DNA of 38,698 nt from Nitrospinota bacterium (GCA_016234205.1 JACRGN010000234.1:1-38698); one strand, 5' to 3'. Shown: positions 5,779 through 25,258, counted from the first letter of the stretch. The notes: generated from the sequence alone by a model not told the origin. Numbers and translations: made by a program.

Positions 5779-5809
5779 CTCGTAAAAAGTCAAGAACAAA
5801 GACTTGATT

Positions 5810-5868: not shown

Positions 5869-5882
5869 TTTTTATAATTTCC

Positions 5883-8294
5883 TTAAGTAAACAGGTTAAT
5901 TTGTGAATTATCAGTATCATCAACTATATAATCAGCTGTTATCATCTCTTTGCTCTCAGAGTAATTCTCTTTAATACTTATACTTTCTACAATTGGAAAT
6001 GTTAAGACAAAAGATGTCCCTTTCCCCTCATCCGAAATCACATCTATATGCCCGTTATATTTTGTGACAATCTTATAAACTACATATAGCCCTAAGCCGG
6101 TTCCTTTGCCCACAGGTTTTGTGGTGAAGAATGGAGTGTATATCTGTGTTAAGTTATTTTTTTTGATTCCTATTCCAGTATCTGTAACAACTGCCTTAAT
6201 AGAATCGCCATTTTTATAGCAGCTCAATATTAACTTCCCCCCTTTTTCTTCCATTGCATGTATTGAATTTATTATAAGATTTATAAAAACTTGCTGCATC
6301 TCTCCGGCATTGGCACTCGTCCAGCACCCCTTTTTCAAGTCAGAGATAATAGTTATTGAAGAAAAATCAATAGTATGTTTTGCCATCTTGATAGAGTTTT
6401 CAAGTATGACTGCCATATCAATTGTTGATATGGATTCATTTTGTGTTTGTCGGGAATAGGTTAGTAATTCTTTTACGATAGCTGTGGTTTCAATTGTATA
6501 ACGGACTATATCTTTTGCATAGGAATTCACCTTTATTAGATCATTTTCATCAAGAATAGCCTCTGCCATACCCAGGATACCTGCAAGCGGATTGTTTATC
6601 TCATGGGCAATTCCAGAGGCAAGTGTTCCAATGCCAGCCATCTTTTCAGATTGGATCAATTTAAATTGAAGCATCCTCTCCTCTGAAATGTCTTTAGATA
6701 TTCCGACAGTCCCGACAATCTCTCCTGCATCGTTCTTTAGTTGTGAGATAGTTAGACTTACATGATGGACATTGCCATTTCTTGACAGTAAACATATCTC
6801 CCTGTTTCTGACTACACCAAATTTATTTACAAGTTCCATTATAGCTTTTCGCTCATCAGAATTTTGATAGAGGAGGGTGGCAGGTTTATTTATGATTGCA
6901 TCTTTTTTATAGCCAAGCCTTTCCTCTGCCTCGGGATTAAATTCCACAATGTTGCCGTTAATATCTGTTGTTATAATTATATCCTTTGAATGTTCAACAA
7001 TTTTTTCAAGATGGTTTTTTGTCTTATAAAGCTCCTGGTATGTCTTTTCAAGATTAAGATTTTTTTCGGATATTTCAATCAGTTTTGATTCCAGTTCCTG
7101 TTTATAGTTTTCTACCTCTAATTGTTTTTTATTCAGGCTTATGGACATCTCCCTGATTGAACGGGCAAGGTCTCCAATCTCATCGGTCCTCTTGAGTTCA
7201 TAATCATTACCCTTTTGATAGTTGCCGTGTGAAATCTCTCTGGCAATTGACTTCATTTCAATCAGAGGTGCTGCCACCCGTCTTGATACCTGTGAAACTA
7301 AAAATAAAATAATGCCGATACCTGCAATTGTGAATATGATAATTATACTAAGGAGTCTGTAAATTGGTGCGTAAGCCTCATCAATGTCCATCTTGACTAC
7401 CAATCCCCAATTGAGGTCGGGTATATGTCTATATGCGGCAAGGACATGTCTTTTCCTGTAGTCTATTCCTTCGGTAATACCATTCTTTCCTGCAATGGCC
7501 AGCGTTGATGGTGTTTCTTCCGGCAGTTTATATTTCAATGCACTCTCTTTTAAAAACTTAAGATTCAATAATGTTATATTATCCTTGTTGACCAGTATCT
7601 CTTCTCCTGTCTCGCCCATTCCTGATGTCTCTTCAACCAATGGCTCTAATATTTCATTTACCTTTATTTTTGCAACTACGACACCGGCAACAACACCATG
7701 TTCCGCCCCGCGGTAATCGTATATGACATCTGAAAATGTAATAATAGGCTGTTTAAATCTATCGGAATAATAGACATCCTTTATATAAACTTCCCCTTGT
7801 GAAATCGGTATCTTAAAGTAATCATTATTTGATTCATCTATATCAAGCCTGTCAGCATTAGTAGAGAGGACTACATGTCCTGTGGTATCTAAAATAAATA
7901 TCTCAGAAAATACGCCAAATTGACTGATTGTCATATTCAAGAAAGAGGTGATGGTGCTGTATTCCTCACTCCCTGTATATTTAGCCGGTGGAAACCCTCT
8001 ATGCTCATAATCTTTTTTAATCAATAGAAGTTTTGATAAATTTATTTCCATAAATCTATTATGGGCAATCATCTCTGTATCGTTAAACCTCTCTATGAAC
8101 CAGTTCCTGATTTTTTTTTCCTTGCCATCAGCGATATTGCTCAATTGATTGAATATTTTTCCCCTCAGGATGGACTCCCCCTCTTTATAGATTGTGTAAC
8201 CTAATATAATAAATGGCAGGATTGAAATAAGAAGGAAGATAATGATAAGTTTATTTCGGATGGTGAAAATGCGGTTTGTTTCTTCCTGTTTCAT
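5883..8294 (-). CDS. Sensor histidine kinase (Cache-like periplasmic domain, HAMP, PAS, HisKA, HATPase)
   Basis: Two TMs; DEIGDLARS (HAMP); DIIITTDINGNIVEFNPEAE (PAS); GIAHEINNPL H-box; QQVFINLIINS, DTGIGI, PFFTTK, GTGLGL. Confidence 0.93.
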   Translation of the reverse strand: MKQEETNRIFTIRNKLIIIFLLISILPFIILGYTIYKEGESILRGKIFNQLSNIADGKEKKIRNWFIERFNDTEMIAHNRFMEINLSKLLLIKKDYEHRGFPPAKYTGSEEYSTITSFLNMTISQFGVFSEIFILDTTGHVVLSTNADRLDIDESNNDYFKIPISQGEVYIKDVYYSDRFKQPIITFSDVIYDYRGAEHGVVAGVVVAKIKVNEILEPLVEETSGMGETGEEILVNKDNITLLNLKFLKESALKYKLPEETPSTLAIAGKNGITEGIDYRKRHVLAAYRHIPDLNWGLVVKMDIDEAYAPIYRLLSIIIIFTIAGIGIILFLVSQVSRRVAAPLIEMKSIAREISHGNYQKGNDYELKRTDEIGDLARSIREMSISLNKKQLEVENYKQELESKLIEISEKNLNLEKTYQELYKTKNHLEKIVEHSKDIIITTDINGNIVEFNPEAEERLGYKKDAIINKPATLLYQNSDERKAIMELVNKFGVVRNREICLLSRNGNVHHVSLTISQLKNDAGEIVGTVGISKDISEERMLQFKLIQSEKMAGIGTLASGIAHEINNPLAGILGMAEAILDENDLIKVNSYAKDIVRYTIETTAIVKELLTYSRQTQNESISTIDMAVILENSIKMAKHTIDFSSITIISDLKKGCWTSANAGEMQQVFINLIINSIHAMEEKGGKLILSCYKNGDSIKAVVTDTGIGIKKNNLTQIYTPFFTTKPVGKGTGLGLYVVYKIVTKYNGHIDVISDEGKGTSFVLTFPIVESISIKENYSESKEMITADYIVDDTDNSQINLFT

Positions 8295-8308
8295 TTAAAA
8301 ATACCTTC

Positions 8309-8412
8309 TTGCCACAGAGAACACAGAGTTCACAGAGGAAAAAATAAAAGACTAAAAATCTGTGTCCTATTTGATTTAATTTCTCTGCTTTTCTCTGTGC
8401 CCTCTGTGGCTA
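8309..8412. repeat. Inverted tandem repeat (cacagag)n / (ctctgtg)n
   Basis: gccacagagaacacagagttcacagagg ... ttctctgcttttctctgtgccctctgtggc. Confidence 0.82.
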
Positions 8413-8424
8413 ATTAAGTTTTTG

Positions 8425-9504
8425 TTATGTATCTGAGTTTTTATGAAAATGTCCCCTGTTATTGATTAAATGCTGAACAATTGTCGGGTCTAATTTTGTC
8501 CCTGATATATTTTTAATCTCAGTAATCGCATTCTCTGTGGAAAGGGATTTACGATATGGCCGGTTGCTTGTCAACGCATCAAATACATCAGCTACTGCAA
8601 TAATCCGTGAGAGGAGGGGAATCTGGCCATCTTTCAATCCGTCCGGGTAACCTGTTCCGTCATAATTTTCATGGTGATGCTTTATAATCTTGCTTACATT
8701 TTTAAATGAGCTTATCTCAGAGATAATCTTTTCACCAATTAAAGAGTGTTCTTTTATCATATTAAACTCTTTTTCACTAAGGGCATCTATCTTGTTCAGG
8801 ATAGAATCGGCAATTCCTATCTTGCCAAGGTCGTGCAGGAGAGCGGCGAATTCAAGGTCGGTCTTTTCCTCTTCTGAAATACTAAGTAATTCACCAATCT
8901 TAAGGCAGGTGAAACGCATCCTGTCACAATGCCCCCTTGTATATTTATCCTTCGCCTCAATTGCCTCGGCAAGCACCTTTACCATCTGGAAATTCATTTT
9001 CTGCAGTGTTTCATAAGCATTCTCAAGTTCAATCGTTTTATTATTAAGCTCATCTGTCCTCATCTCTACCTTCTTTTCTAAGAGGGTGCGATATTCCATA
9101 TTCTCTCTTTCTAATTTTTTATTTTGAATCAGGAGGTCTCTGTTGTGCAGGGCGTTCTGGACAGTATTTAAGAGGTGTTCTTTTGTAATCGGCTTTATAA
9201 GGAAATCAAAGGCACCCATCTTCATGGCGTCAATGGTAATATTTAAGTCCATCAAGCCTGTAAGGATTAGGACAGGAATATCATCATAATTCTTTTTAAC
9301 ATATTCCAGTATCTGAAGCCCATTTACCTCCGGCATTCTAATGTCACTGATGACAAGCTCGTAATTGTTATTTTTAAGCTCATCAAATATCCCGGAGCCA
9401 CCGGCTGACTGGATGACTGAATAGTTTCCCTTGGTTAAATGGATAGAGAGGGTCTTTCTTATAATCTCTTCATCGTCTATAACGAGGATTGGTCTTTTTT
9501 GCAT
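8425..9504 (-). CDS. Response regulator with HD-GYP domain (probable c-di-GMP phosphodiesterase)
   Basis: REC (ILVIDDE...SDIRMP...KP); YTRGHCDR, LLHDLGKIG, HHHENYDGTGYPDGL, DVFDALTSNRPYR. Confidence 0.93.
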   Translation of the reverse strand: MQKRPILVIDDEEIIRKTLSIHLTKGNYSVIQSAGGSGIFDELKNNNYELVISDIRMPEVNGLQILEYVKKNYDDIPVLILTGLMDLNITIDAMKMGAFDFLIKPITKEHLLNTVQNALHNRDLLIQNKKLERENMEYRTLLEKKVEMRTDELNNKTIELENAYETLQKMNFQMVKVLAEAIEAKDKYTRGHCDRMRFTCLKIGELLSISEEEKTDLEFAALLHDLGKIGIADSILNKIDALSEKEFNMIKEHSLIGEKIISEISSFKNVSKIIKHHHENYDGTGYPDGLKDGQIPLLSRIIAVADVFDALTSNRPYRKSLSTENAITEIKNISGTKLDPTIVQHLINNRGHFHKNSDT

Positions 9505-9516
9505 ATTAAAATTATA

Positions 9517-9578
9517 AGTGTCAGTGTCAGTGTCAGTTAAAGGAATTGTTTTTTTCTCACACTGACACTTACACTTAC
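9517..9578. repeat. Hexamer (gtcagt)n / (actgac)n hairpin
   Basis: agtgtcagtgtcagtgtcagt ... ctcacactgacacttacacttac. Confidence 0.8.
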
Positions 9579-9718
9579 GCTTTAAGTTTTTGTGCTATAT
9601 ACAACACTACTTGTATCAAAAGACACAAGAACTAATAATAGATATAACAAATAAGGTTATTTTTCGGTATTGTTTTTTGAATAGATGTTAATTATAATAA
9701 CCTATCATATTTAATGTA

Positions 9719-9734
9719 TCCAATTATCATGCCA
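9719..9734 (-). promoter_or_regulatory. Possible variant sigma54 promoter facing the minus-strand signalling operon
   Basis: Minus strand reads TGGCATGATAATTGGA, 14/16 identical to the site at 14786, but with GG instead of GC at -12. Confidence 0.35.
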
Positions 9735-9750
9735 AAGTAAAGAAATTGCA

Positions 9751-11301
9751 ATGAATTTTTTAAATAGGCTTCAAGTAAAAATAATATTACCTATCATTCT
9801 CTCTATCGTCATAATTTTCTCCATAATGATATATATTGTGGATAGGATGGAGAGGGGACTGTTTCATGAGGACTGGCTTGTCAAGACTAAGATATATACA
9901 AATTCTATTTCTGCAATGATAGAAAAAGAAATGGAAGGGAAAAGACCTTTTATTGCCCGGGACCTAATCCATAAGTTGAAAAAAATTCCTGGTATGAAAA
10001 ATTTACAGGTTATCAGAACAAATGGAAAAGAGGCATTTGAGGATTTTGAAACATTTTATAAGGTAAAGGAGATTTATCTGTTTTCCCCTGAGGTTATAGG
10101 GGAGTATTTGAATTTAAAAGAGGGAAAAGCAAATGTAGTCAGTGATGAGAGGGTAGAAGCTGTTATGAAGGAGGGGAAGGAGAAAGAGTATTATGGTTAT
10201 GACGAAAACGGAAAGGTGTTCTATGATTATTATCTGCCAATTTTAAATAAATCTGAATGTCATAAATGCCATGGTGACAAAGAAAAGATTCGTGGTATTT
10301 TAAAAATCTCTCTATCCGATGAAAAATTTGCCGAGCATCTGAACAACCACCTCTCTATCATGTTATGGATATCTGCAGCTACTGTAATCATTCTGATAAT
10401 TGTGATTAGCTGGATTGTTTATAAACTGGTTTCCAAGCCGCTGAATACTGTTATTAAGACAATAAAGGAGATTGAGCATGGCGATAAAAATCAGAGGATT
10501 GGTTTGGAATCAAATGATGAGATTGGATATATGGCAACGCATTTTAATATAATGCTTGACAGACTGAAACAGGAGGGACACCTCGCATCTCTCGGCAAAA
10601 TCTCGGCTGTTTTGGCACATGAGATAAAAAATCCGATTGCCGGAATCAGCGGTGCAGTGCAGTTGATTGATGAGGGGCTCCCTGCATCTGACCCGAAGAG
10701 GGAGATTATAAATAAGATAATCAAGGAGGTTCAGAGGTTAGATTCAATGCTCAAAGACCTTCTCAAGTTCTCAAAGCCTATTACTGTAAATCCAAAAGTG
10801 CATGATTTGAATAAAGTGATAACAGATACAATTCATCTGCTGGAATTTAAATGCAGAAAGGGTAAAATATCCATTGACACAAATCTTGACAGCAATATTC
10901 CCAATATCTTTATTGACAGGGAGAAGATTCAACAGGTGTTACTTAATATCTGCATCAATGCTATTGAGTCAATGAAGGAAGATGGAAAACTTACAATTGC
11001 TACATCAATGGATAAACCGAGTGGCAGCGAATACATCCAGATAGATATTTCTGATACCGGATGCGGCATATCTCCTGATGTCATGAAAAATATCTTTACC
11101 CCTTTTTTCACAACCAAGAAAGAGGGTAGCGGGCTGGGACTGCCGATTAGCTTGAGAATAGTTGAAAAACATATGGGGACGATAAAAACAGAAAGTGTTG
11201 TTGACAAGGGGAGTAAGTTTTTAATAATATTACCTATTGATAATTCATTAAATATTCTTAAAGGAGATGCCGAATATAATGACAGCGAGGTATTATTATG
11301 A
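9751..11301 (+). CDS. Sensor histidine kinase with periplasmic c-heme (CHKCH) domain and HAMP
   Basis: Two TMs; YLPILNKSECHKCHG; DEIGYMATHFN; LAHEIKNPI; QQVLLNICINA, DTGCGI, PFFTTK, GSGLGL. Confidence 0.93.
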   Translation: MNFLNRLQVKIILPIILSIVIIFSIMIYIVDRMERGLFHEDWLVKTKIYTNSISAMIEKEMEGKRPFIARDLIHKLKKIPGMKNLQVIRTNGKEAFEDFETFYKVKEIYLFSPEVIGEYLNLKEGKANVVSDERVEAVMKEGKEKEYYGYDENGKVFYDYYLPILNKSECHKCHGDKEKIRGILKISLSDEKFAEHLNNHLSIMLWISAATVIILIIVISWIVYKLVSKPLNTVIKTIKEIEHGDKNQRIGLESNDEIGYMATHFNIMLDRLKQEGHLASLGKISAVLAHEIKNPIAGISGAVQLIDEGLPASDPKREIINKIIKEVQRLDSMLKDLLKFSKPITVNPKVHDLNKVITDTIHLLEFKCRKGKISIDTNLDSNIPNIFIDREKIQQVLLNICINAIESMKEDGKLTIATSMDKPSGSEYIQIDISDTGCGISPDVMKNIFTPFFTTKKEGSGLGLPISLRIVEKHMGTIKTESVVDKGSKFLIILPIDNSLNILKGDAEYNDSEVLL

Positions 11302-12716
11302 AAAAGGCAAGGGTATTGGTAGTTGATGATGAAAATATTATTGCATGGACACTTCAGGAAAAACTGATCAAAGAGGGTTTTGAGGTCAGGACGGTGGAGA
11401 ATGGGGAATCCGCAATTAATTCCATCAAGGAAGATATGCCTGATTTAGCCTTTGTAGATGTCTTCTTGCCTGATATAGGTGGAATTCAGGTATTGAAGGA
11501 GATTATCAGTTTGAATGAGGAAATCCCTGTAATCATGGTTACAGGCTCAGGTTCAGTTGATACAGCAGTTACTGCCATGAAGCTCGGGGCTTATGATTAT
11601 ATCAATAAGCCTTTTAACCTTGCCGAGGTTGCCATTATTGCAAAAAAGGCAATTGAGTCTAAGAGGGTAAGCCGGGAGGTTTCATGGAGATTAGAAAAAG
11701 AGAAGAAGACACACAGTATTGGCAATATAATCGGTGAGAGTAAAGAGATAAAAGGTGTCCTTGATATGATTCAGAAGATAGTCCAGAGTGATGCTACTAC
11801 TGTCCTGATAGAAGGGGAGAGCGGGACAGGGAAGGACCTTGTGGGAAGGGCTATACATTATACGAGCAGAAGGTCAGCAAGGCCTTTCATGGATATAAAT
11901 TGTACTGCGCTGCCGGATACCCTTGTCGAGAGCGAACTTTTTGGATACGAAAAAGGGGCATTTACAGACGCCAAAGCAAAAAAAGTTGGTCTCTTTGAGC
12001 TTGCAGACGGGGGGAGTGTCCTCCTTGATGAGATAGGTGATATGCCCATAGCTACACAGACAAAACTTCTTAAATTTATTGAGAATAAACGTTTCAAAAG
12101 GGTTGGAGGGGCTTCAGATATTGAAGTGGATGTGAGGATTATAGCGGCAACTAACAAGAACCTTAAAGAGGAGATTAAGAGTGGAAAGTTCAGGGAGGAT
12201 TTGTATTATCGCTTAAAGGTGATACCAATTTTTATACCGCCTCTCAGGGTAAGGACGGGCGATATACTTATTCTTGCCAATTATTTTATAAATAAATTCA
12301 ATCAGGAGTTTAGGAAAGATGTAAAAGGACTGTCATCAAAGGCTGAAAAGGCTATTTTATCATATCAATGGCCTGGAAATGTCAGAGAATTAAAAAATGT
12401 TATTGAGAGGGCGATTATCCTTGAGAGTAAAGATAAGATATTAATTGAGCATCTCCCGATTGAAGTTGTAGAGGGTGCTCCTTTTAAAGAGGAGGAACGG
12501 CAGCAGCAATCAAATTTTACCCTTCCAGAAAATGGAGTTCCCCTTGAAGAAGTAGAAAAAAATCTATTGATACAGGCATTAAAAAAGGCAAATGGAAACC
12601 AATCAAAGGCAGCAAAACTTCTAAGTTTGAGCAGATATGCACTGCGGTATAGATTGAAAAAGATTGGATATTTAAAAATAGATTCGACAGATTCAGAAAT
12701 CACACAATCTGTTTAG
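11298..12716 (+). CDS. NtrC/AtoC-family sigma54-dependent response regulator
   Basis: REC domain; GESGTGKD Walker A; ESELFGYEKGAFTDA; LLDEIGD; FREDLYYRL; WPGNVREL; Fis-type HTH. ATGA overlap with the kinase. Confidence 0.96.
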   Translation: MKKARVLVVDDENIIAWTLQEKLIKEGFEVRTVENGESAINSIKEDMPDLAFVDVFLPDIGGIQVLKEIISLNEEIPVIMVTGSGSVDTAVTAMKLGAYDYINKPFNLAEVAIIAKKAIESKRVSREVSWRLEKEKKTHSIGNIIGESKEIKGVLDMIQKIVQSDATTVLIEGESGTGKDLVGRAIHYTSRRSARPFMDINCTALPDTLVESELFGYEKGAFTDAKAKKVGLFELADGGSVLLDEIGDMPIATQTKLLKFIENKRFKRVGGASDIEVDVRIIAATNKNLKEEIKSGKFREDLYYRLKVIPIFIPPLRVRTGDILILANYFINKFNQEFRKDVKGLSSKAEKAILSYQWPGNVRELKNVIERAIILESKDKILIEHLPIEVVEGAPFKEEERQQQSNFTLPENGVPLEEVEKNLLIQALKKANGNQSKAAKLLSLSRYALRYRLKKIGYLKIDSTDSEITQSV

Positions 12717-12721
12717 TCTAA

Positions 12722-12737
12722 TGGCATATTAATTGCT
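12722..12737 (+). promoter_or_regulatory. sigma54 (-24/-12) promoter for the triheme cytochrome genes
   Basis: TGGCATATTAATTGCT, exact GG-N10-GC spacing, 5 nt after the activator stop codon. Confidence 0.85.
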
Positions 12738-12915
12738 GTTTATATATCCGCTTATTTATTTTATAAAACATTAGGAGGTGAACTGCCTATGTAATTTGTT
12801 GAAATATCTGTTTTATTTTTAGGGTTACATAAAAATTTAAAAAGATAGAATGGGCAATATAACACTTAAAGAGTGCGAAAATACACAGAAAACTAAAAAA
12901 AAGGGGGGGGATGAA

Positions 12916-13296
12916 ATGAAATTCAAATTTTTGATTGTTTTGTTTTTAGGTTTATTTACTCTTCTTTCTATGCCAGAATTTTCACGTGCAGAATATGGCG
13001 ATATCATACTAAATAGAAAGGCTGAAAGTATGAGGAAGGCAGGGGTTAATGATGTCATGTTTCCCCACTGGTTTCATCGTATAAGATTCAAGTGTAAAGT
13101 ATGTCATGAAGATATTTTTATTTTAAAGGCAGGCGCTAATGATATTAACATGAGTCTGATCATGAATGGAGAGAAATGCGGGAAGTGTCATAATGGGATT
13201 ATTGCATGGGAACCGCTTTATTGTGATAGATGTCATTCTTGGGAACCAGGATGGCTCCCCGGACCGGTTCAGCATTCAAAGAAGGTATCTAAATAG
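12916..13296 (+). CDS. Periplasmic c7-type triheme cytochrome c
   Basis: Signal peptide MKFKF...FSRA; FPHWFH..CKVCH..INM..CGKCH..CDRCH. Start reset to ATG 12916 behind a G-rich SD. Confidence 0.9.
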   Translation: MKFKFLIVLFLGLFTLLSMPEFSRAEYGDIILNRKAESMRKAGVNDVMFPHWFHRIRFKCKVCHEDIFILKAGANDINMSLIMNGEKCGKCHNGIIAWEPLYCDRCHSWEPGWLPGPVQHSKKVSK

Positions 13297-13348
13297 ATAA
13301 CAATAAATTTTATGGATTATTGAATTGACTGGGAGGGAATTTAATACG

Positions 13349-14131
13349 ATGAAAACTGATAAAAGACTTATAATGATATTAATGTTTTTGACAATTTTTG
13401 TTGTATCCTTTAATTATTCTGCCTTATCTGCTGAAAAAAAAATAGAAAAGAAGACGAAGGTTAAAGAGACGACCCCTAAACCGGTTGAGCAGTCTACTCC
13501 ATCTGCTGAAAAACCTGCTGAAACGATGCCACCTGTTAGTGGGGCAGAAGAATCATCAGGAAAAACTCTTGACCCAAAAGACCCAAGGAGCCTTATTTAC
13601 CTTGATACAAAAGGAAATAAGGCTGGAACAGGCGATGTTACTAAGTCAGGTGTTGCATCTACATTTGCCAAAGTTGGAGCGGGATGGCATCCCGCCGCAC
13701 TTGCAGAAACAAATCTTCCTATGGATAAATATAAATTAGTGGATTGGGCTAAAATTGTTAAGGAAAAGATAATAGCCCCTCAGTATAGCTTAGATATGAA
13801 CGCAAAGCCGGAAGATGAACAGATGATTGATTTAAATATACTGTTTGAGACTAAAAGTGATTTTATGGATAATGTTATATTTCCGCATAACATACATACA
13901 TGGTGGCTAAAGTGTGAGATATGTCATGAAACTGTCGGCGGGCCTATTTTTGAGCCTTCTGCAGGGGCAAACGATGTAAAAATGGTAGAAATGGCAGGAG
14001 GGAAATGGTGCGGCAGATGTCATAATAAAATAGCATTTCCGCTTGCAGATTGTAAGAGATGCCACATTTCGGCCAAGGGGGTAAAGCCCGATGAGAGCGT
14101 AACTTTAAGAACAATATCAAAATCTAAGTAA
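13349..14131 (+). CDS. c7-type triheme cytochrome c with N-terminal low-complexity linker and extra domain
   Basis: Signal peptide ...ALSA; P/E/K-rich linker; FPHNIH..CEICH..VKM..CGRCH..CKRCH. Start reset to ATG 13349 (SD gggagg). Confidence 0.88.
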   Translation: MKTDKRLIMILMFLTIFVVSFNYSALSAEKKIEKKTKVKETTPKPVEQSTPSAEKPAETMPPVSGAEESSGKTLDPKDPRSLIYLDTKGNKAGTGDVTKSGVASTFAKVGAGWHPAALAETNLPMDKYKLVDWAKIVKEKIIAPQYSLDMNAKPEDEQMIDLNILFETKSDFMDNVIFPHNIHTWWLKCEICHETVGGPIFEPSAGANDVKMVEMAGGKWCGRCHNKIAFPLADCKRCHISAKGVKPDESVTLRTISKSK

Positions 14132-14133
14132 AG

Positions 14134-14484
14134 ATGAATAAAAGGATACTTAGAGGAGGATTATTGTTGGTTTTGTGTTTTATTGCGGATATAGGGATTT
14201 CTATATTTCCAGTTCAAGCAGTTGAGAAGAAACCGCAAGATATTATTATTTTCAATAACCAAAAGGCAAGCAGGGGAAAAGCTGATATGCCCCCTGCCCG
14301 CTTTTCACATTCTATTCATAATAAAAAGCTAAAGTGTAAAGATTGCCATCCCTCTGTTTTTAAAGAGAAAAAAGGGGCGAATATAGTTACAATGAAGAAA
14401 AATATTAATGGCGAGTATTGTGGAAAATGCCACAATGGACAATTTGTATGGGATATGTCAGCTTGTCGCCGTTGTCATGTTTAG
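14134..14484 (+). CDS. Periplasmic c7-type triheme cytochrome c
   Basis: Signal peptide ...VQA; FSHSIH..CKDCH..VTM..CGKCH..CRRCH. Confidence 0.9.
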   Translation: MNKRILRGGLLLVLCFIADIGISIFPVQAVEKKPQDIIIFNNQKASRGKADMPPARFSHSIHNKKLKCKDCHPSVFKEKKGANIVTMKKNINGEYCGKCHNGQFVWDMSACRRCHV

Positions 14485-14785
14485 CAGTTTTGTTTTTTTT
14501 AAATTAATTATGTGTAAAATTAACTATAAGTATGCAATAAGACACACTTCGTATTAAAATTTAATCCTTCCATTATGATTTGTAAAATCCTAAATTATGC
14601 ATTAATCACAGGCTAACACAGTTAAGCACATGTAAAACAAATAATTAAATTCCTTTTTTTGAATTTAAAATATATTTTAACTCATTGAATAATCGTTATA
14701 AATTTGTGATTTTATGATGCATAAATATGGGCATCTTTAAAATATGTTTTACCATTTTTTCTAATAGTAATACTCTTTATAATAA

Positions 14786-14801
14786 TGGCATGATAAATGC
14801 T
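14786..14801 (+). promoter_or_regulatory. sigma54 promoter for the OmcS-like cytochrome
   Basis: TGGCATGATAAATGCT (GG-N10-GC), preceded by about 300 nt of AT-rich intergenic DNA. Confidence 0.8.
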
Positions 14802-14843
14802 TATTTATGATTATCAAGAAGTTTAATTTAAGTATTGAAATAT

Positions 14844-16055
14844 ATGAAAAAAAAGACTTGTATCACATATAGTATATCTTTTGTCCTATTTTTAGCCTTT
14901 TTATTATACAGTATCCCTGTTTCAGCAGTGCATAAAGGTGCGGGTAACCTAACTTGCGGCAATTGCCATACTATGCATAACAGTCAGGGTAACAGCGGTC
15001 TTGGTGGTGTGTCCGGTGGTTCCCTCATTTTGCTCAGGGCGGATGGTATAACAGGCAGAGAAAATATTCACAAACTTTGTCTGCAATGTCATGCGGATAC
15101 TGGAGGTCAGGCAGATACCCAACATGCACCACATGGTCAATATGCTCCAAAGGTTCACTCCGCAACTGCGACATGGAATCAGGATACTCATCTTACTGCT
15201 ATAGGGGCGGGCGGGAATTTCTATCCCGAGGTTGATGCTACAAATTTTGCATTAAGTTCAAGCGGACAAACTGCTGGTCTTGGAAAAGGACATTCTCTTG
15301 GCCTTACAAATGTAACACCTCCTGGTGGAGATACAGCAATAACAGGTTTCTCATGCACAGCCTGCCATGACCCTCATGGGACTGCAGATGCTAATGATCA
15401 AGGCATAAACAAATTTAGGAACTTAAGAAAATCAGCAACAAATGCCGGCAACAATGCCGGTGTTACACTTACTGCTGGAGATTTTACAAGTTGGGTGGGG
15501 GGGATTAACGGAACGAATTTTACAGGGGTATCCCTTCCCGGTGGAAGCGGGGCAGGGGCAGTAGCATGGCCGGTAATCAGCACCACACCTACAGGTAATT
15601 CTGCAGATGCTGCTAACAGTAACTCCTATGGTGGGGGTAGTACGGGTGGTATTTCAAGATGGTGTGCCCAGTGCCATGATAACTGGCATGAGGCTCTTAC
15701 AACGGGAAATCTTGATAACAATAGTATGGATTGGCACAGGCATCCGGTTGATAATCTTTTGAGTGATACAACAACTACTTCAGGTGCAGGAGTAACTATT
15801 ATAAATACTGCTAATTATTCAGTTACAACTGCGGGTCAGTATCTACCGGTTGCGAGTGGTTCAGGGGCTAATAGAGTATTTTATAAAACCAATGAATCAA
15901 CAGATAAGGTTATGTGTCTATCCTGCCATTTTGCTCATGGTGGTCCTTACAATGACAATCTACGATGGGATTATACCTCATCTGTTTCATCAGGTAGTCA
16001 GAACGGCAATGGTGTGCCTTCAACCAGAGGGTGTCAGTTGTGTCATAATAGGTGA
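14844..16055 (+). CDS. omcS: Extracellular hexaheme cytochrome c, OmcS-like (candidate nanowire subunit)
   Basis: Signal peptide ending VSA|VH; six CxxCH: CGNCHTMHNS, CLQCH, CTACHDPHG, SRWCAQCH, VMCLSCHFAH, CQLCH, plus GGNF, KGH, PPGG and RHP in the order I recall for G. sulfurreducens OmcS. Start ATG 14844 (TTG 14835 in the track). Confidence 0.8.
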   Translation: MKKKTCITYSISFVLFLAFLLYSIPVSAVHKGAGNLTCGNCHTMHNSQGNSGLGGVSGGSLILLRADGITGRENIHKLCLQCHADTGGQADTQHAPHGQYAPKVHSATATWNQDTHLTAIGAGGNFYPEVDATNFALSSSGQTAGLGKGHSLGLTNVTPPGGDTAITGFSCTACHDPHGTADANDQGINKFRNLRKSATNAGNNAGVTLTAGDFTSWVGGINGTNFTGVSLPGGSGAGAVAWPVISTTPTGNSADAANSNSYGGGSTGGISRWCAQCHDNWHEALTTGNLDNNSMDWHRHPVDNLLSDTTTTSGAGVTIINTANYSVTTAGQYLPVASGSGANRVFYKTNESTDKVMCLSCHFAHGGPYNDNLRWDYTSSVSSGSQNGNGVPSTRGCQLCHNR

Positions 16056-16110
16056 TGCGAAGCATCATTCCGAGCGAATGCAAGGAATCTTGAGACTAAA
16101 AGTTTAAAAT

Positions 16111-16143
16111 GGGAGGCTTGTAAAAAAGCTTCCCTTTTTTTTT
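16111..16143 (+). terminator. Rho-independent terminator after the OmcS-like gene
   Basis: GGGAGGCTT-gtaaaa-AAGCTTCCC stem-loop (one G-U pair) followed by T9. Confidence 0.85.
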
Positions 16144-16155
16144 GCCTTGATAAAT

Positions 16156-17169
16156 ATGAACCGTTTAAAATTAATTATAATTTTTATTGCTATTATATTA
16201 TTTGGACTTGTAAATACAGAATCAGTAATATGGGCATCACAAGGTATTGACATTAAATATATTACATCATATTCTGCAAAGTCAATGGGCGGGGTTATAC
16301 CTTTAAAAATATATTTTGACCGTCAGCAGAATGAACTTTATATTGGCAGTCAAAGTAAGGAAATTGCTGTTATTAATGAGGATGGTATGATAGTTCACAG
16401 GATTCCACTTGCAGATTCCCCAAAATTACTCTGTGTAAATAAAAATGGCAATATTTACATATCTGATAATAAAGGGGGGATAAGTATTCTTAACTATCGG
16501 GGGGAGTATATAAAAAATCTTGACCTCTCGGCTGTGCCAGATAACACACTTTTAGCAATTCAATCATTTCATGTGGATGAGAATGAACATCTTTATATTG
16601 GTGATGGAAGACTAAGCAGAATTATCGTCCTCGATAGTTCAGGTAATTTTTTATATCAATTTGGTAAAAAGGGTAGTGGCGAGGGGGAATTCTTGAATGC
16701 AAAGGCAATAACTACCGATGCTGAGAGGCTATATCTTATTGACCCGCCACTATTCAGGGTATCAGTTTATGATAAAAAGGATGGTAGATTTCTTTATATG
16801 TTCGGACAGATATCGAGCCTTTTTGGAGGCTTCAGTATGCCATCAAGTATTGATACAGATGGAAAGAGGCTATTTGTTGTAGATACTAATAGGGCAATGG
16901 TAATAGTTTTCGACAGGGAGGGAAAGCCAATCATTGAATTTGGCGGGGTTGGCAGAAATCCTGACAGCCTCTCATGGCCCTCGGATATTAAAGTAGATGG
17001 GAATGGCAAGATCTATGTTTGCGATACAGGAAACGGAAGGATTCAGATATATGAACTTATAGATGTCCAGCAAATTGATGAAGTTAAACCACCAGAGACT
17101 GTTGAATCTGGCAAGGCGGCCGAGCCAATAGAGGTTGAGCCTGTTATTGAAAAAATAATTGTGAAGTGA
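16156..17169 (+). CDS. Exported NHL-repeat beta-propeller protein
   Basis: Signal peptide; FGKKGSGEGEF, FSMPSSIDTD, LSWPSDIKVDGNGKIYVCDTGNGRIQIY. Confidence 0.9.
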   Translation: MNRLKLIIIFIAIILFGLVNTESVIWASQGIDIKYITSYSAKSMGGVIPLKIYFDRQQNELYIGSQSKEIAVINEDGMIVHRIPLADSPKLLCVNKNGNIYISDNKGGISILNYRGEYIKNLDLSAVPDNTLLAIQSFHVDENEHLYIGDGRLSRIIVLDSSGNFLYQFGKKGSGEGEFLNAKAITTDAERLYLIDPPLFRVSVYDKKDGRFLYMFGQISSLFGGFSMPSSIDTDGKRLFVVDTNRAMVIVFDREGKPIIEFGGVGRNPDSLSWPSDIKVDGNGKIYVCDTGNGRIQIYELIDVQQIDEVKPPETVESGKAAEPIEVEPVIEKIIVK

Positions 17170-17175
17170 TTGTTT

Positions 17176-17191
17176 TGGCATATTCTTTGCT
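17176..17191 (+). promoter_or_regulatory. Internal sigma54 promoter between the two NHL genes
   Basis: TGGCATATTCTTTGCT (GG-N10-GC) within a 34-nt intergenic gap. Confidence 0.72.
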
Positions 17192-17203
17192 ATTATATTA
17201 TGC

Positions 17204-18082
17204 ATGATGAAAATGTCTCTCTTAATATTTGGAATTCTCATTATCCTTACATCTAAGGTAGAATCCACACCTTCAAATTTCTATTTTATCAGTGCCATTG
17301 AGAAATTCTCTGATGAGTATAGGTTTGAGGGGTTATCATCAATTTTTATTAATGATGAGGAACTTTATGTTGTAGATAATGGAGGAAACCACATATATAT
17401 TTTTAATCTGGATGGGTCATCTGTTTTTCAATTTGGAAAAGAGAAAGGGATTGCACTTCCCATTGATGTTTTTGTATACAACAATTATATGTATGTGAGT
17501 GCGGAAGGAAAGGATTTTATAGAGATTTTAAATATGAGGGGTGAAAAGATTGGAAAGATAGAACCTCCATACGAAGGGTTTACACCTGGTAAGATGGCAG
17601 CAATTGAAAGGGAAGGGTTCTTTGTTGTAGATAGAAAATCTCTCAATATATGTGTATTTGACAGGGATGGTAAATATCAATATAATTTTGGTGGAAGAAA
17701 TCTATTTAAATCAATTGCTGGTATTGCGGCGAAAAACGGGAAGATTTATGTATCGGTAATGAGCGCTGACCCTGTCGTAAGGGTATTTGATACCAAGGGT
17801 GAATACCTGACAGGTTTTGGACATATTGGTGAAAGCGATCAAAATTTCTCTATGCCATCAGGAATAAAAGTAGATGACAATGGAAATATATGGGTGGTGG
17901 ATGCCTTCAAGCACAGGGTTATTGGCTTTAATATAGAAGGTAAGAAGCAGAATGAATTTGGCATATCAGGAAATCCCAAAGAAGATCTTTATTATCCGCT
18001 AAGTATTGATTCAAAGGGGGACATATTTTATGTAATAGAAAAAGGACGGGGTAGAATAAGTATGTTCAGGAGGGTGGATTAA
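17204..18082 (+). CDS. Exported NHL-repeat beta-propeller protein
   Basis: Signal-like N-terminus; LYVVDNGGNHIYIF, FSMPSGIKVDDNGNIWVVDAFKHRV, LYYPLSID. Confidence 0.9.
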   Translation: MMKMSLLIFGILIILTSKVESTPSNFYFISAIEKFSDEYRFEGLSSIFINDEELYVVDNGGNHIYIFNLDGSSVFQFGKEKGIALPIDVFVYNNYMYVSAEGKDFIEILNMRGEKIGKIEPPYEGFTPGKMAAIEREGFFVVDRKSLNICVFDRDGKYQYNFGGRNLFKSIAGIAAKNGKIYVSVMSADPVVRVFDTKGEYLTGFGHIGESDQNFSMPSGIKVDDNGNIWVVDAFKHRVIGFNIEGKKQNEFGISGNPKEDLYYPLSIDSKGDIFYVIEKGRGRISMFRRVD

Positions 18083-18083
18083 A

Positions 18084-19250
18084 ATGAAGAAGACAGAAAC
18101 TTGCCCTGAGAGAAGCCGAAGGGACAGAAGACAGAAGACAGAAGTAAACGGTTTGAACGGTTTAATCTGTTTGCTTCTTGCTTCTTGCTTCTGTCTTCTG
18201 TCTTCTGTCTTCTCCTTTGCTGGAGATTATCACAAATCAGGTGTTCCCGCACAAACCACCCTTGCCTGTGCCCAGTGTCATGTTATACATGGAACACAGG
18301 GGAGCATATCTTTGATTTATACAGGAGCAACAAATACTTATGCAAAATTACTTAGGTCTGATTCAGTGGTTAATCTCTGCAAGTACTGTCATGACGGAGA
18401 CCCCTTTAATCTTGGAGCGCCAGATCTGTTTAGTCCTATTTATAATGCTGCTGCAGGTGATTTTAATACAGGTGGAACACCTGACGAAGATAAGCGGCAC
18501 AGTATCGGAGTTGATTTAGCAGGAGTAAGTCCGCCAGGTTATGCAGGGAGTGATTGGACAACAGCACAGACAAAATATGGCTCTGTTTTCAGTTGTATAT
18601 ATTGCCATGACCAGCATGGAAATAGTAATTATAGAAATTTTAGGCCCGAGCCGCTGAATCCCTCCTTCAGGGAACCTGGAGGTGACACATCAACGGATTC
18701 ATATAAGATAGTTACATATAATAACGGAGTTTGGGACAATTCATCTTCAATTGCACAGGCAATTAAAGATGGAAATGGTGATGGCAGTAATCCTGCCAAT
18801 CAGTTTTCCACCTCTAATATGACATTCAGAAGCAACACCAAACAGATAGCAGGTTTTTGTGGCAAATGTCATGTAAAGTTTTATAATTCTCTCGGATATG
18901 GCGGTGATGACAGTAGTTATGGTAATGGTAAGCTGGGTGGCAGTGCTGGTGGTGACAACGGAACAGGTACTCAGTGGGTGCGCCACCCGGTAGGCGGTAT
19001 TTCTGTTGGGGTTGGAAATGGTCATACTGACCCCGCAAATTTTGCATCAAATTTTACCGGCGCAAGCCGTGTTCGTGTCATAAATCCAGATGGACTTGAT
19101 AGTGGGAATGATGAACAGCCATTCTGTCTAACCTGTCACAGGTCGCATGGTTCTTCAAATCATTCTAATTTAATATTTGGGGCACCGACAACATTAGGGG
19201 GGGCTGGCACCATGATGAGAGATACATGCCAGCAGTGTCATAATCAGTAG
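18084..19250 (+). CDS. Second hexaheme cytochrome c, divergent OmcS-family paralogue
   Basis: SFA|GDYH; CAQCHVIH, CKYCH, CIYCHDQHG, FCGKCH, FCLTCHRSH, CQQCH; AGDF, KRH, PPG and RHP are colinear with 14844-16055. Confidence 0.82.
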   Translation: MKKTETCPERSRRDRRQKTEVNGLNGLICLLLASCFCLLSSVFSFAGDYHKSGVPAQTTLACAQCHVIHGTQGSISLIYTGATNTYAKLLRSDSVVNLCKYCHDGDPFNLGAPDLFSPIYNAAAGDFNTGGTPDEDKRHSIGVDLAGVSPPGYAGSDWTTAQTKYGSVFSCIYCHDQHGNSNYRNFRPEPLNPSFREPGGDTSTDSYKIVTYNNGVWDNSSSIAQAIKDGNGDGSNPANQFSTSNMTFRSNTKQIAGFCGKCHVKFYNSLGYGGDDSSYGNGKLGGSAGGDNGTGTQWVRHPVGGISVGVGNGHTDPANFASNFTGASRVRVINPDGLDSGNDEQPFCLTCHRSHGSSNHSNLIFGAPTTLGGAGTMMRDTCQQCHNQ

Positions 19251-19260
19251 GAGAAACAAT

Positions 19261-20853
<1,593 letters not shown>

Positions 20854-20879
20854 ATGTATAGGAAATTATAAAAAGCATA

Positions 20880-21050
20880 TAAGGAGAAAGGGAAAAGAAG
20901 ATGGAGAGATGGGGATAAAAAAACAAAAAAAGAATCAGGATACAGATGGACACGGATAACATAGGCTGAAAGCTGAAAGACTTTAACCTTTGAGCCTTGA
21001 GCTTTGAGTTATTATTTATTTCTGTTTCTCCCTTTCCTCCATTCTCCTTA
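20880..21050. repeat. Nested intergenic repeat cluster
   Basis: Outer arms aaggagaaagggaaa...gatggagagatgggga and ttctccctttcctccattctcctt enclose cagatggacacggat and ggctgaaagctgaaag / tttgagccttgagctttgag units. Confidence 0.7.
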
Positions 21051-21067
21051 ATCTTTTTCTTTTGTTC

Positions 21068-21916
21068 ATGACAGCGGTTCTAAAATTACTTCTTTTCGTT
21101 CATCTTGCCTTCTGCTTCTTGCCTCTTACCACTATTGTTTATGGGGAAGAAAAACTTGTAGTGAGCGAAGCAAATCTAAATGGGAAGGAATGCATACCTA
21201 TTGAATCAGATGAGATGCAGAGACGCTATGAAAATAAGCCCCTTCTATTTGATAATATGTTTATATTTGATATTCGTCCTCTTGCAGCGGCTGTGAAAGG
21301 AAAATCTATCCCATTTGTAAAGCAGACCAATATTGATATGTTTAGGGTGAAATACATACATAATATAGAGATGTGGAAAGGAAAGGATGTGTATCTTGTT
21401 GGCGAAGACACAGAATCAACTAAGAGTTTTTGTGAGGAGATGATTAAAAAAGACTACGGTGTGAATGATATTTATTATTTAAAAGGTGGGATTGATGCAT
21501 GGAATGGACCTATCAGGATGTCTTTCAAAGATGTGCGGTGTGAAGGTCTTGATTCGCGTGAAATAAAAAAACGGTTGGAAGCAGGGCAGGAGGTCCATAT
21601 TATAGACTGGCGGTATCCGGAGGATTTCTATAATGGCGGACATATCCCAGGCTCAATAAATGGATATGGAAAAGAAGGGGTTTTTGGAGGGATTGAAGAT
21701 ATGCTGCGGGGATATTTTAGATTCAGACCCATTTATATAAAATTAATCACTGATAATGCCGTTGCTGTATTTATAGATGATACGGAGTGGAAGGGTTTAC
21801 ATAGATGTCGGATTGAAAAGAGGGCGAGCGGTATAATGGATAAAATGTACTATTTAAAAGGCGGTATAGAGAAGTGGGAAGGACCACTGGAAAAGGAACC
21901 ATGGAAACAAGAATAA
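21068..21916 (+). CDS. Exported tandem rhodanese-like protein without the catalytic Cys
   Basis: Signal peptide; IFDIRP...YYLKGGIDAW; IIDWRYPEDFYNGGHIPGSIN...YYLKGGIEKW; active-loop positions read VGED and IDDT. Confidence 0.8.
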   Translation: MTAVLKLLLFVHLAFCFLPLTTIVYGEEKLVVSEANLNGKECIPIESDEMQRRYENKPLLFDNMFIFDIRPLAAAVKGKSIPFVKQTNIDMFRVKYIHNIEMWKGKDVYLVGEDTESTKSFCEEMIKKDYGVNDIYYLKGGIDAWNGPIRMSFKDVRCEGLDSREIKKRLEAGQEVHIIDWRYPEDFYNGGHIPGSINGYGKEGVFGGIEDMLRGYFRFRPIYIKLITDNAVAVFIDDTEWKGLHRCRIEKRASGIMDKMYYLKGGIEKWEGPLEKEPWKQE

Positions 21917-22653
21917 TAGAAGTTAGAAGTCCGAAGTCTGTCTTCTGTCTTCTGTCCTCTGTCCTCTGGTGTCTGATATTGGCCCCTATGTTAGTCAGTG
22001 CCGAGAGTGTGAGGAAGGAGGGATATCGCAATGATTATCTGCCAAACGGGATTGTTCCTAAGCACGAGATGGATACAGCTGAAAATTGGATTGCAATATT
22101 TGAACATCCTAAACGGGGAGAATGGCAGGAGCCGGATAAGGTAATTGAAAAGATGAACCTGAAAGAGGGTGATGTCGTTGCAGATATTGGAGCAGGGTCG
22201 GGTTATTTTACAAGACTGTTTGCCAGGGTTGTTGGGACAACAGGAAAGGCTTATGGGGTAGATATTGAGCCAGAGTTGGTTAAATACATGGAAGAAGATG
22301 CCCAAAGATTGAATTTGAGCAATTATATACCGAAGTTAGCCACAATGGCTGATTCCGGTCTTGAAACTAATAGTGTTGATGTGATCTTTATATGTCTCAC
22401 CTATCACCATCTTGAAGATAGAATCAATTATATGAATAAACTTAAAAAGGTTTTGAAAAAAGGTGGAAGGGTTATAATTGTCGCATTTTATAAAAAGAAG
22501 ATGGACTTTGGTCCCCCCCCTGATAATAAGATTTCGGAGGAAGTGACGATAGAAGAGATGAAAGAGGCTGGTTACCATCTTACCAGACGACTTGATTTTT
22601 TGCGATATCAATATTTTCTTGAATTTGAACCGAATGTAATTAACCACAGATGA
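21901..22653 (+). CDS. Class I SAM-dependent methyltransferase with signal-peptide-like N-terminus
   Basis: WQEPDKVI...VVADIGAGSGYFT...GVDIEP...SVDVIF...YHHL...LKKGGRVIIV. Start reset to ATG 21901 (SD aagga). Confidence 0.88.
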   Translation: METRIIEVRSPKSVFCLLSSVLWCLILAPMLVSAESVRKEGYRNDYLPNGIVPKHEMDTAENWIAIFEHPKRGEWQEPDKVIEKMNLKEGDVVADIGAGSGYFTRLFARVVGTTGKAYGVDIEPELVKYMEEDAQRLNLSNYIPKLATMADSGLETNSVDVIFICLTYHHLEDRINYMNKLKKVLKKGGRVIIVAFYKKKMDFGPPPDNKISEEVTIEEMKEAGYHLTRRLDFLRYQYFLEFEPNVINHR

Positions 22654-22671
22654 ACGCAGACTAAACAATAC

Positions 22672-24336: not shown

Positions 24337-24400
24337 TAGTTTTAGAGTTGTAGTTTTAGAGTTGTTGATTTGGCTGAGGAGATTAAGTATAATTAAAAAC

Positions 24401-25258
24401 ATGATTAAACTGAAACAACCTATAAAAAATATTATGAGGCGAAAAGGGTTCATCTACGGTGGAGGGGGAGCATTATTTTTACTTCTCCTGATATTTATAT
24501 ATTACTTCTTTTTTGCTAAGGATGTTTTAAAAGACATGGTATTCATACCAGGTGGGGAGTTTATAATGGGGGTTGATATCCCAAAAAAGGAGCAGGGGAA
24601 AAGGGAGGAGGAATTAACAATAGATATTGATGAGACACCTGCACACAAGGTTTATGCAGATGGTTTCTATATAGATAAATACGAGGTTACAAACGTTCAA
24701 TATAAGAAATTCTTAAAGGCAACGGGCAGGAAAACCATCCTTATTGATCCGGTTGATAAGGAGGCTTCATACAACTGGAATGAGGATAACTACCCGGATG
24801 GACAGGGAAATAACCCTGTTGTTCTGGTGGATTTTGAAGATGCAAAGGCATATTGTGAATGGAAAGGGAAGAGACTCCCAACCGAAGAAGAATGGGAAAA
24901 GACATGTCGGGGAGATGCTGGAAAAAAGTGGAGCTTTGGGAATGAAGAGGTTTCCGGATATGCTAATACACGGGAGCTTAATTTGAAGTGGTCGGGCTCG
25001 GTCGGTTCTTTTCCGAAGGACCTCTCGCCCTATAAGGTATTTGATATGACGGGGAATGTTATGGAATGGACAGACTCACGATATTTGCCATATCCGGGCT
25101 CAGAAATGAAGGTAGGTTTTGGAGGGCTTGAAAAGGTAATTCGTGGAGGAGGATGGCTGGTAGATATTCAATCCTCTCGTTGCTCAAATCGCAATATTGC
25201 TCCCCCTACAAAAAGGCACAGGATGCTGGGTTTCAGATGTGCAAAGGATATACGGTGA
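24401..25258 (+). CDS. Membrane-anchored FGE-sulfatase (SUMF1)-domain protein
   Basis: MVFIPGGEFIMG, FYIDKYEVTN, RLPTEEEWEK, DMTGNVMEW, VIRGGGW, GFRCAK. Start uncertain (24401 or 24434). Confidence 0.88.
   Translation: MIKLKQPIKNIMRRKGFIYGGGGALFLLLLIFIYYFFFAKDVLKDMVFIPGGEFIMGVDIPKKEQGKREEELTIDIDETPAHKVYADGFYIDKYEVTNVQYKKFLKATGRKTILIDPVDKEASYNWNEDNYPDGQGNNPVVLVDFEDAKAYCEWKGKRLPTEEEWEKTCRGDAGKKWSFGNEEVSGYANTRELNLKWSGSVGSFPKDLSPYKVFDMTGNVMEWTDSRYLPYPGSEMKVGFGGLEKVIRGGGWLVDIQSSRCSNRNIAPPTKRHRMLGFRCAKDIR

Follow-up and report, generated by a model that had tools for sequence, protein, structure and literature searches.

The DNA analysed here, referred to as the window, comprises 38,698 nucleotides (nt) from a Nitrospinota bacterium (GCA_016234205.1, JACRGN010000234.1:1-38698), read on one strand from 5' to 3'. 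Its gene at 14844-16055, here called paralog A or simply A, almost certainly encodes a member of the OmcS family of hexaheme c-type cytochromes. By analogy with OmcS of Geobacter sulfurreducens (GSU2504; 6EF8, 6NEF), A is proposed, with a probability of about one half, to be the major, exposed and polymerising subunit of an OmcS-type extracellular cytochrome module. The proposal that A is a major, exposed and probably polymerising protein is based on a gene layout like that of a true OmcS ortholog, a terminator found across the clade of A, the fast divergence of A and its companion genes. The elements of the A gene are as follows.

14844..16055, + strand: paralog A, OmcS-family hexaheme c-type cytochrome, 403 amino acids (aa) from an ATG
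14844..14927, + strand: predicted signal peptide of A, 28 aa, ending in VSA (from reading of the sequence and alignment to the mature OmcS N-terminus)
14976..14978, + strand: codon of H45, the second His of CHTMH, which pairs with OmcS chain residue 16
14786..14801, + strand: sigma54-type -24/-12 element TGGCATGATAAATGCT of the A gene (pattern match, exact spacing)
16111..16143, + strand: intrinsic terminator with a 9-bp stem, a 6-nt loop and U9 (hairpin search and RNA fold)

A second in-frame start option for A is a TTG at 14835. The six CxxCH motifs are located at C38-H42, C79-H83, C171-H175, C274-H278, C358-H362 and C397-H401. All motifs listed in a preliminary description of the window (VH, CGNCHTMHNS, GGNF, KGH, PPGG, CHDPHG, SRWCAQCH, RHP and CLSCHFAH) were found in the translation, together with the terminal CxxCH, which reads CQLCH. 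Judged from the sequence and the alignment, the N-terminus, with MKKK, a hydrophobic stretch and VSA, is typical of a signal peptide. The mature chain opens with VHKGAGNLTCGNCHTMHNS, and the context of the cleavage site, A followed by VHKGAG, is almost invariant within the A clade, the mature N-terminus being X-His. The public gene call for A (P0001, 14973-16055) comprises 360 aa and begins at Met44 within CHTMH; this start lies past the signal peptide, H30 and the first heme motif, and the longer N-terminus is present in all relatives. Metagenome contigs (runs X1-X4) span the locus with few differences inside A, such contigs being unable to rank genes.

The relationship to OmcS was recovered by both sequence and structure searches. 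A phmmer search of all PDB chain sequences returned a single match at E <= 1, which was OmcS (6ef8_A/6nef, E 3.5e-7), with an alignment of near full length (query 33-390 against chain 4-361) that established homology and placed H45 opposite chain residue 16. The OmcS motifs quoted in the preliminary description (CEGCHTMHNS, GGDF, KGH, PGG, CHDPHG, SEWCANCH, RHP and CLSCHRAH) agreed with 6ef8_A. Both proteins have six CxxCH motifs in the same order, a mature N-terminus of the form X-H-x-G and the flanking motifs CHTMHNS, KGH, PGG, CHDPHG, RHP and CLSCHxAH, and A contains counterparts of all 12 axial-ligand His of OmcS, including the equivalent of residue 16. They differ in that their identity is about 22-28%, that the stretch from heme motif 5 to heme motif 6 is about 35 residues shorter in A, and that the spacer from the N-terminal His to the first Cys is one residue longer. 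The host of A is a member of the Nitrospinota, represented by a metagenome-assembled genome (MAG). In Pfam and NCBIfam, A matched generic multiheme families only and no OmcS-specific model. Because a genuine OmcS ortholog from Geomonas likewise matched just generic multiheme families, these collections appear to hold no curated OmcS model.

For structure prediction, an alignment of 120 rows (A1) was used, containing A, 118 of the 120 listed relatives and a second OmcS-family protein encoded in the window (paralog B); left out were P0001, the truncated gene call of the window itself, and P0100, a fragment of 265 aa. The AlphaFold2 model of A, generated on A1 without hemes, had a mean predicted local distance difference test (pLDDT) score of 76.9 and a predicted template modelling (pTM) score of 0.78, with low confidence (52-61) at residues 21-60, the N-terminal arm bearing H45. 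In a Foldseek search of the PDB, 6ef8_A was the sole match at E <= 0.001 (E 4e-4, probability 0.95), so that the predicted fold points to OmcS alone. Superposition with VIA-align (model residues 32-403 against 6EF8 chain residues 1-406) gave a Z score of 10.6 and a root-mean-square deviation of 4.5 Å over 263 residues. The predicted fold thus showed a moderate match to 6EF8, a degree of agreement that is to be expected when a loop-rich heme protein is modelled in heme-free form. A homodimer prediction with two mature A chains (residues 29-403) and four hemes scored 0.00 in both runs and carries no weight either way.

Relatives of A are widespread. A HMMER search of 1.84 billion cluster representatives yielded 681 matches at E <= 1e-3, 158 at E <= 1e-10 and 59 at E <= 1e-30, and a word-index search yielded 354 at E <= 1e-3 among 8000 candidates scored. 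Where names were given, they were 'hypothetical protein', 'cytochrome c553' or 'doubled CXXCH'. The loci of the family span the Thermodesulfobacteriota/'Deltaproteobacteria', Nitrospinota, Nitrospirota, Acidobacteriota, Krumholzibacteriota, Gemmatimonadota, Planctomycetota, Chloroflexota, Ignavibacteriota, Calditrichota and others. For comparison, three loci were of particular use: L002, a near-identical Nitrospinota locus, L012, a syntenic second Nitrospinota locus, and L018, from Geomonas silvestris. In a family tree of 93 proteins (FastTree, local support values only), A was placed in a clade of 15 rows (support 99), referred to as the A clade, and B in a clade of four rows (support 98), each of which adjoins an A-type gene (L002, L012, L015 and L017). 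The nearest row to B was the B protein of L012; the nearest rows to A did not include the A protein of L012. Seven proteins, a subset of the A-clade relatives, would be heptaheme variants (P0028, P0031, P0035, P0042, P0055, P0089 and P0110), as they have an extra CxxCH (e.g. C-A-T-G-C-H) after RH(P/A)V.

Exactly 12 His residues were invariant across the 120 rows of A1, paralog B included: H42, H83, H175, H278, H362 and H401 within the CxxCH motifs of A and H30, H45, H150, H178, H300 and H365 outside of them. Residue 16 of OmcS, the counterpart of H45, is reportedly the trans ligand (Wang et al. 2019). PMC6584659 describes OmcS as having 12 axial His ligands, of which its own chain supplies 11 and the adjacent subunit one, to heme 5; trans ligation is also stated in PMC12954529 and PMC12307469. 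As the 12 invariant His match the 12 His ligands of OmcS, the complete OmcS ligand set is conserved in these rows; all six hemes of A are most likely bis-His ligated by these residues, as judged from the alignment. In a second alignment, whose 93 rows were selected for having a His at +3 after the first CxxCH, each of the 12 His was kept in 82-93 rows, and no other His of A exceeded 64/93.

The preliminary description had stressed the second His of CHTMH, but keeping this residue does not single A out. In addition to its invariance in 120/120 rows of A1, a His at +3 after the first CxxCH was present in 101 of 107 hexaheme-like open reading frames (ORFs; 5-8 CxxCH, 250-620 aa, + strand of 80 loci from many phyla), and paralog B and both OmcS-like Geomonas proteins carry this His too. 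Among the four OmcS paralogs of G. sulfurreducens, wire formation is known for OmcS alone (PMC12977616). Because nearly the whole family keeps this His, it cannot show that A forms a filament; by its distribution, it is a mark of the family that fits a filament and does not indicate one.

As had been proposed, the A gene lies between a sigma54-type promoter and an intrinsic terminator, and a related genome has kept both elements. The terminator hairpin (16111-16134) consists of 9 pairs, of which 5 are G-C, ahead of a T9 run, and was the top-ranked site of the region 9500-29000 (fold -16.2 kcal/mol, z -2.7). In L012, the terminator and the entire 3' untranslated stretch are near-identical, and a U-to-C exchange turns a G-U pair into a G-C pair. 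The terminator described previously is thus real and conserved, but calling it the only clear one in the window slightly overstated the case, since a second plausible terminator is located at 37517-37541, 3 nt past the stop codon of the ORF at 36039-37514. Another 9-pair hairpin site (887-908) lies within coding sequence. Across the A clade, a hairpin with a T-run within 220 nt of the stop codon (at least 10 pairs, at least 4 of them G-C) was detected for 11/15 genes, compared with 15/647 non-overlapping 220-nt background windows from the same loci; two of the 15 genes have less than 100 nt of downstream sequence, one of them still being terminator-positive. The OmcS ortholog of Geomonas silvestris (L018; E 2.2e-130 to 6EF8) is likewise followed by a terminator-like hairpin of 12 pairs with a T-run, and its second paralog (E 1.5e-120 to 6EF8) abuts the accessory genes directly, as B does in the window.

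The sigma54 pattern (TGGCAYN6TGCW) matched three times in the window (0.25 expected; none of 100 shuffles reached three matches), always on the + strand and in intergenic DNA. In L012, the site of the A ortholog is kept as TGGCATGATTAGTGCT without mismatch and the site before the second NHL gene with one mismatch; the site before the c7 cytochrome genes was not conserved in this comparison. The site at 14786 was correctly recognised in the preliminary description: it has exact -24/-12 spacing, it is retained in L012, and both rpoN and an activator are encoded in the genome. The sequence evidence makes it likely that the promoter and the terminator of A are real features under conservation. Inverted repeats 5' of the A promoter, examined for activator sites, comprised one AT-rich palindrome and were uninformative. 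The additional elements are the following.

9751..11301, + strand: sensor histidine kinase (HAMP, HisKA, HATPase_c; Pfam)
11298..12716, + strand: NtrC-type response regulator/sigma54 activator (Response_reg, Sigma54_activat, HTH_8; Pfam, Sigma54_activat E 3.3e-68)
12722..12737, + strand: sigma54-type site 5' of the c7 genes, not kept in L012
17176..17191, + strand: third sigma54-type site, 5' of NHL gene 2, in the 34-nt gap between the NHL genes

Given the site at 17176-17191, the accessory genes past the terminator may have a sigma54 promoter of their own.

On the + strand, the genes for the histidine kinase, the sigma54 response regulator, three triheme c7 cytochromes, A, two NHL proteins, B and a lipoprotein of 530 aa follow each other in this order, which is the same in L012. 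Paralog B, the conservation of this module and the non-orthology of A to Geobacter OmcS had been overlooked in the preliminary description. The remaining members of the module are listed here.

12850-13296, 13325-14131 and 14134-14484, + strand: three triheme c7-type cytochromes, 3 CxxCH each (Pfam Cytochrome_C7)
16147..17169, + strand: NHL-repeat beta-propeller protein 1 (NHL1; Pfam NHL/DUF5128)
17204..18082, + strand: NHL-repeat beta-propeller protein 2 (NHL2; Pfam)
18084..19250, + strand: paralog B, OmcS-family hexaheme, 31% identical to A (alignment, tree)
19261..20853, + strand: 530-aa lipoprotein with an N-terminal LpoB/GNA1162-like domain (Pfam)

The c7 trio scored 63, 60.8 and 66.1 bits against NCBIfam TIGR04257 (cut-off 40) and, among the 80 loci, adjoins an A-type gene only in the two Nitrospinota loci. 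NHL1 matches an NHL-like gene 5' of Geomonas omcS (E 1.9e-10), and the 530-aa lipoprotein matches a 388-aa lipoprotein encoded 3' of the Geomonas omcS genes (BLASTP E 5e-17). The idea that the 530-aa protein is a fusion of the 199-aa and 388-aa lipoproteins of Geomonas was rejected, as its N-terminal domain matches the N-terminal domains of both (E 2e-4 and 5e-17). Of the 80 loci, 39 have an NHL-type gene no more than 3 kb away on the same strand, and 27 have an LpoB-like gene no more than 8 kb away; for the 38 loci with a length of 15 kb or more, these numbers are 24 and 21.

Within this module, A diverges fastest. Between the window and L012, the A proteins share 45% aa identity, compared with 60-85% for the eight neighbours, i.e. 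the sigma54 response regulator (82%), the c7 cytochromes in gene order (85%, 69% and 82%), NHL1 (60%), NHL2 (74%), B (80%) and the lipoprotein (62%). At the nucleotide level, blastn similarity to L012 was continuous over 11311-20816 save for 14484-15900, which contains the A coding region and its 5' leader; similarity returned at 15901 and extended across the final 150 nt of A and the untranslated 3' stretch into the terminator. The flanks of the interrupted segment keep 71-83% nucleotide similarity. The coding region of A has either been swapped in between conserved flanks or is evolving much faster than its neighbours, a pattern that suggests cassette-like exchange or diversifying selection on A. 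Fast divergence is expected of an exposed major subunit.

Taken together, these features are compatible with the following scheme. Transcription would start at the sigma54 promoter, with the NtrC-type two-component pair encoded just upstream as its probable activator, and most of it would end at the intrinsic terminator 3' of A, so that more A than products of the downstream accessory genes would be made. A is predicted to be exported via the Sec pathway as a hexaheme c-type cytochrome, with the three periplasmic triheme c7 cytochromes as its likely electron donors. By analogy with OmcS, it may form a head-to-tail polymer, in which H45 of one subunit would serve as the missing ligand of heme 5 (C358-H362) in the following subunit. 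What the analysis shows is that A belongs to the family, that the ligand set and the gene module are conserved, and that promoter and terminator sequences are present and conserved; high expression of A, its export from the cell, its polymerisation with ligation in trans, and the direction in which electrons flow are inferred. The role of an abundant structural subunit, as put forward in the preliminary description, would belong to the same scheme. About 11 kb past the module, on the same strand (31277-38129), the window contains type II secretion/pseudopilus genes (GspF, GspG, GspH, two further N-methyl pseudopilins, GspK, a PilM/PilN-like protein and GspM). OmcS export in Geobacter reportedly needs a pilin-based apparatus (PMC12307469), and because of this dependence the type II set may offer a possible export route for A.

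Several observations weigh against a polymerising A. The Foldseek template modelling (TM) score of the model to 6ef8_A is just 0.37, and A is 25-28% identical to the Geomonas OmcS homologs, with the shortening by about 35 residues described above. It is not an OmcS ortholog, the Geobacteraceae OmcS clade being situated in the opposite half of the tree. The His opposite OmcS residue 16 is a family invariant that also occurs in paralogs without known polymerisation. The sigma54 site was detected in only 2/15 A-clade loci, so that sigma54 control of A would be lineage-specific. For a 762-aa protein and a peptidyl-prolyl isomerase (PPIase) encoded downstream of omcS in Geomonas, the search of the genome, of which 83% is present, gave nothing at E <= 1e-3, and no outer-membrane conduit was evident within the window. 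A could instead be a non-polymerising hexaheme, located in the periplasm or at the cell surface, that relays electrons as a monomer or small oligomer in the manner of OmcT, OmcJ and OscC, with H45 ligating a heme of its own chain. This alternative, which we consider possible but less likely than polymerisation, would agree with the restriction of known wire formation to OmcS among the four G. sulfurreducens paralogs (PMC12977616) despite the family-wide His, with the placement of A outside the Geobacter OmcS clade and with the undetected part of the Geomonas accessory block. The promoter-gene-terminator layout across the A clade, as in the Geomonas OmcS ortholog, the divergence of A at a rate much above that of its neighbours and the co-occurrence of NHL and LpoB-like genes, as with omcS, argue against this alternative, although none of them is decisive.

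The structural or core cytochrome might also be B, or A and B might co-assemble, leaving A as a variable cap, adaptor or terminal reductase. All 12 His are kept in B, its identity between the two Nitrospinota loci is 80%, a gap of 10 nt couples its gene directly to that of the LpoB-like lipoprotein, and B-type genes lie beside A-type genes in four loci (L002, L012, L015 and L017). In Geobacter, furthermore, the secretion block is always accompanied by a GSU2501-type paralog and not by omcS, as stated in PMC12977616. However, a single-sequence PDB search with B gave no OmcS match, returning two chance-level matches (E ~0.9), B has no promoter/terminator pair of its own, and several A-clade loci contain A but no B in the available sequence, many of these loci being short. 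This reading is judged improbable. Finally, multiheme cytochromes share CxxCH motifs, and both the generic Pfam families and the TM-score of 0.37 would be compatible with an OmcS resemblance that reflects generic multiheme similarity, combined with chance matches for promoter and terminator. Against this stand the full-length alignment with all non-motif His and several flanking motifs in common, the recovery of OmcS as the sole structural match, the retention of promoter and terminator in L012 while the coding region between them diverged, and the enrichment of terminators after A-clade genes (11/15 against 15/647 windows), which leave this explanation close to refuted.

Known systems provide further points of reference. 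OmcT (GSU2503), OmcJ (GSU0701) and OscC (GSU2501) belong to the same hexaheme family, and their genes lie next to that of the filament protein or not far from it; neither A nor B groups with the Geobacteraceae clade. An OscC-like role of B would follow from gene position only. Shen et al. 2025 (Cell Chem Biol) reportedly describe the osc (omcS-companion) cluster. PMC13194489 and PMC12977616 assign propeller-like features to OscD, secretion/channel-like features to OscEFG and a folding function (prolyl isomerase) to OscH, and the A/B pair resembles the pair of omcS and a GSU2501-type gene, the second of which is tied to the accessory block (PMC12977616). The window shares with the osc cluster beta-propellers and an LpoB/GNA1162-like lipoprotein beside OmcS-like genes; it differs in that neither the 762-aa protein nor the PPIase was matched in the genome and that the homolog of the Geomonas 467-aa YncE/lactonase-type propeller is encoded on another contig, C33 (E 2.8e-31). 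Gene order would allow the Geomonas ORFs to be mapped to Osc letters. In pilus and fimbria systems, the major-subunit gene typically follows a promoter and precedes a terminator and accessory genes, and pilin genes can be under the control of sigma54 and NtrC-family activators. The A locus resembles them in layout, in the putative sigma54 activator control and in the presence of a fast-diverging subunit gene between conserved flanks; protein family and export route differ, so that the comparison is an analogy only. The 'insulated' OmcE nanowires have the mechanism proposed here for A, an interfacial heme with one His from each subunit (PMC12954529), but OmcE is a tetraheme without sequence or fold relation to A.

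The assembly comprises 2.79 Mb in 387 contigs with 39.4% G+C. It contains 25 ORFs with at least 3 CxxCH motifs, two of them with 20 motifs and others with 15, 11 and 9 (contigs C3, C92, C270, C203 and C33), and the organism is rich in cytochromes for a 2.8-Mb genome. On C3, LpoB-like matches adjoin multiheme ORFs, and on C33 the 467-aa propeller homolog is encoded beside a triheme ORF. Upstream of the module, the - strand (1-9504) carries a chemotaxis-like set, with a partial CheA (Hpt, H-kinase_dim), a methyl-accepting chemotaxis protein, two CheW proteins, a CheR-TPR fusion, a Cache-PAS histidine kinase and an HD-GYP-type response regulator. Downstream, on the same strand as the module (21062-31268), lie genes for two rhodaneses, an S-adenosylmethionine (SAM) methyltransferase, a 554-aa protein without Pfam family, a nuclease-like protein, a 734-aa WD40 protein and three FGE-sulfatase (formylglycine-generating-enzyme-like) proteins, one of them TPR-fused. 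Runs of the heptamer AGACAGA (20 matches, 0.03 expected) were detected at 18122-18210, 19262-19360, 21935-21964 and 22809-22838, at the 5' ends of the ORFs for B, the 530-aa lipoprotein, the methyltransferase-like protein and the 554-aa protein; the first two are followed by reverse-complement runs, and paralog A lacks the heptamer. Read in frame, they encode a stretch rich in Lys, Arg, Gln and Glu followed by a hydrophobic stretch rich in Cys, Leu, Ser and Phe, which is signal-peptide-like. The summed depth of metagenome contigs over heptamer regions reached 2384 and 7034, compared with about 20 elsewhere, and 29 repeat clusters are present genome-wide.

What is new here is an OmcS-family member with a somewhat different gene module; the family type itself is already known. 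OmcS homologs and companion genes have been described as widespread in bacteria (PMC10954620 and PMC12954529), reportedly also by Shen et al. 2025. A search of a limited literature collection found no paper on an OmcS-type locus in Nitrospinota/Nitrospinae, although Shen 2025, Baquero 2023 or their supplements may list one. Geobacter sulfurreducens is the only species from which OmcS-type filament structures have been determined; according to a 2026 paper, the earliest structure of a bacterial nanowire from any other species was of the OmcE type (PMC13712944). Which of the many OmcS homologs polymerise is named as an open question in PMC12977616. In this respect, the 'inter-subunit histidine' is unusable as a marker for filament formation, and P0001 illustrates that public gene calls can trim the N-terminus of such cytochromes.

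The locus is a compact candidate from a phylum that is best known for oxidising nitrite. It has a clear regulatory frame consisting of a two-component system, a sigma54 promoter and a terminator, and the conserved A/B pairing could help in selecting homologs to be expressed and studied by cryo-EM. As a tentative and rather doubtful extension, A-type genes may constitute a second, non-Geobacter nanowire system of the OmcS family, with a variable A, a conserved B, two NHL proteins and an LpoB-like lipoprotein, in which A would be an exchangeable cassette flanked by a conserved promoter and a conserved terminator, and polymerisation would be ancestral because nearly the whole family keeps the His aligned with the trans ligand. 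If true, this would mean that cytochrome filaments occur in Nitrospinota and a dozen other phyla.

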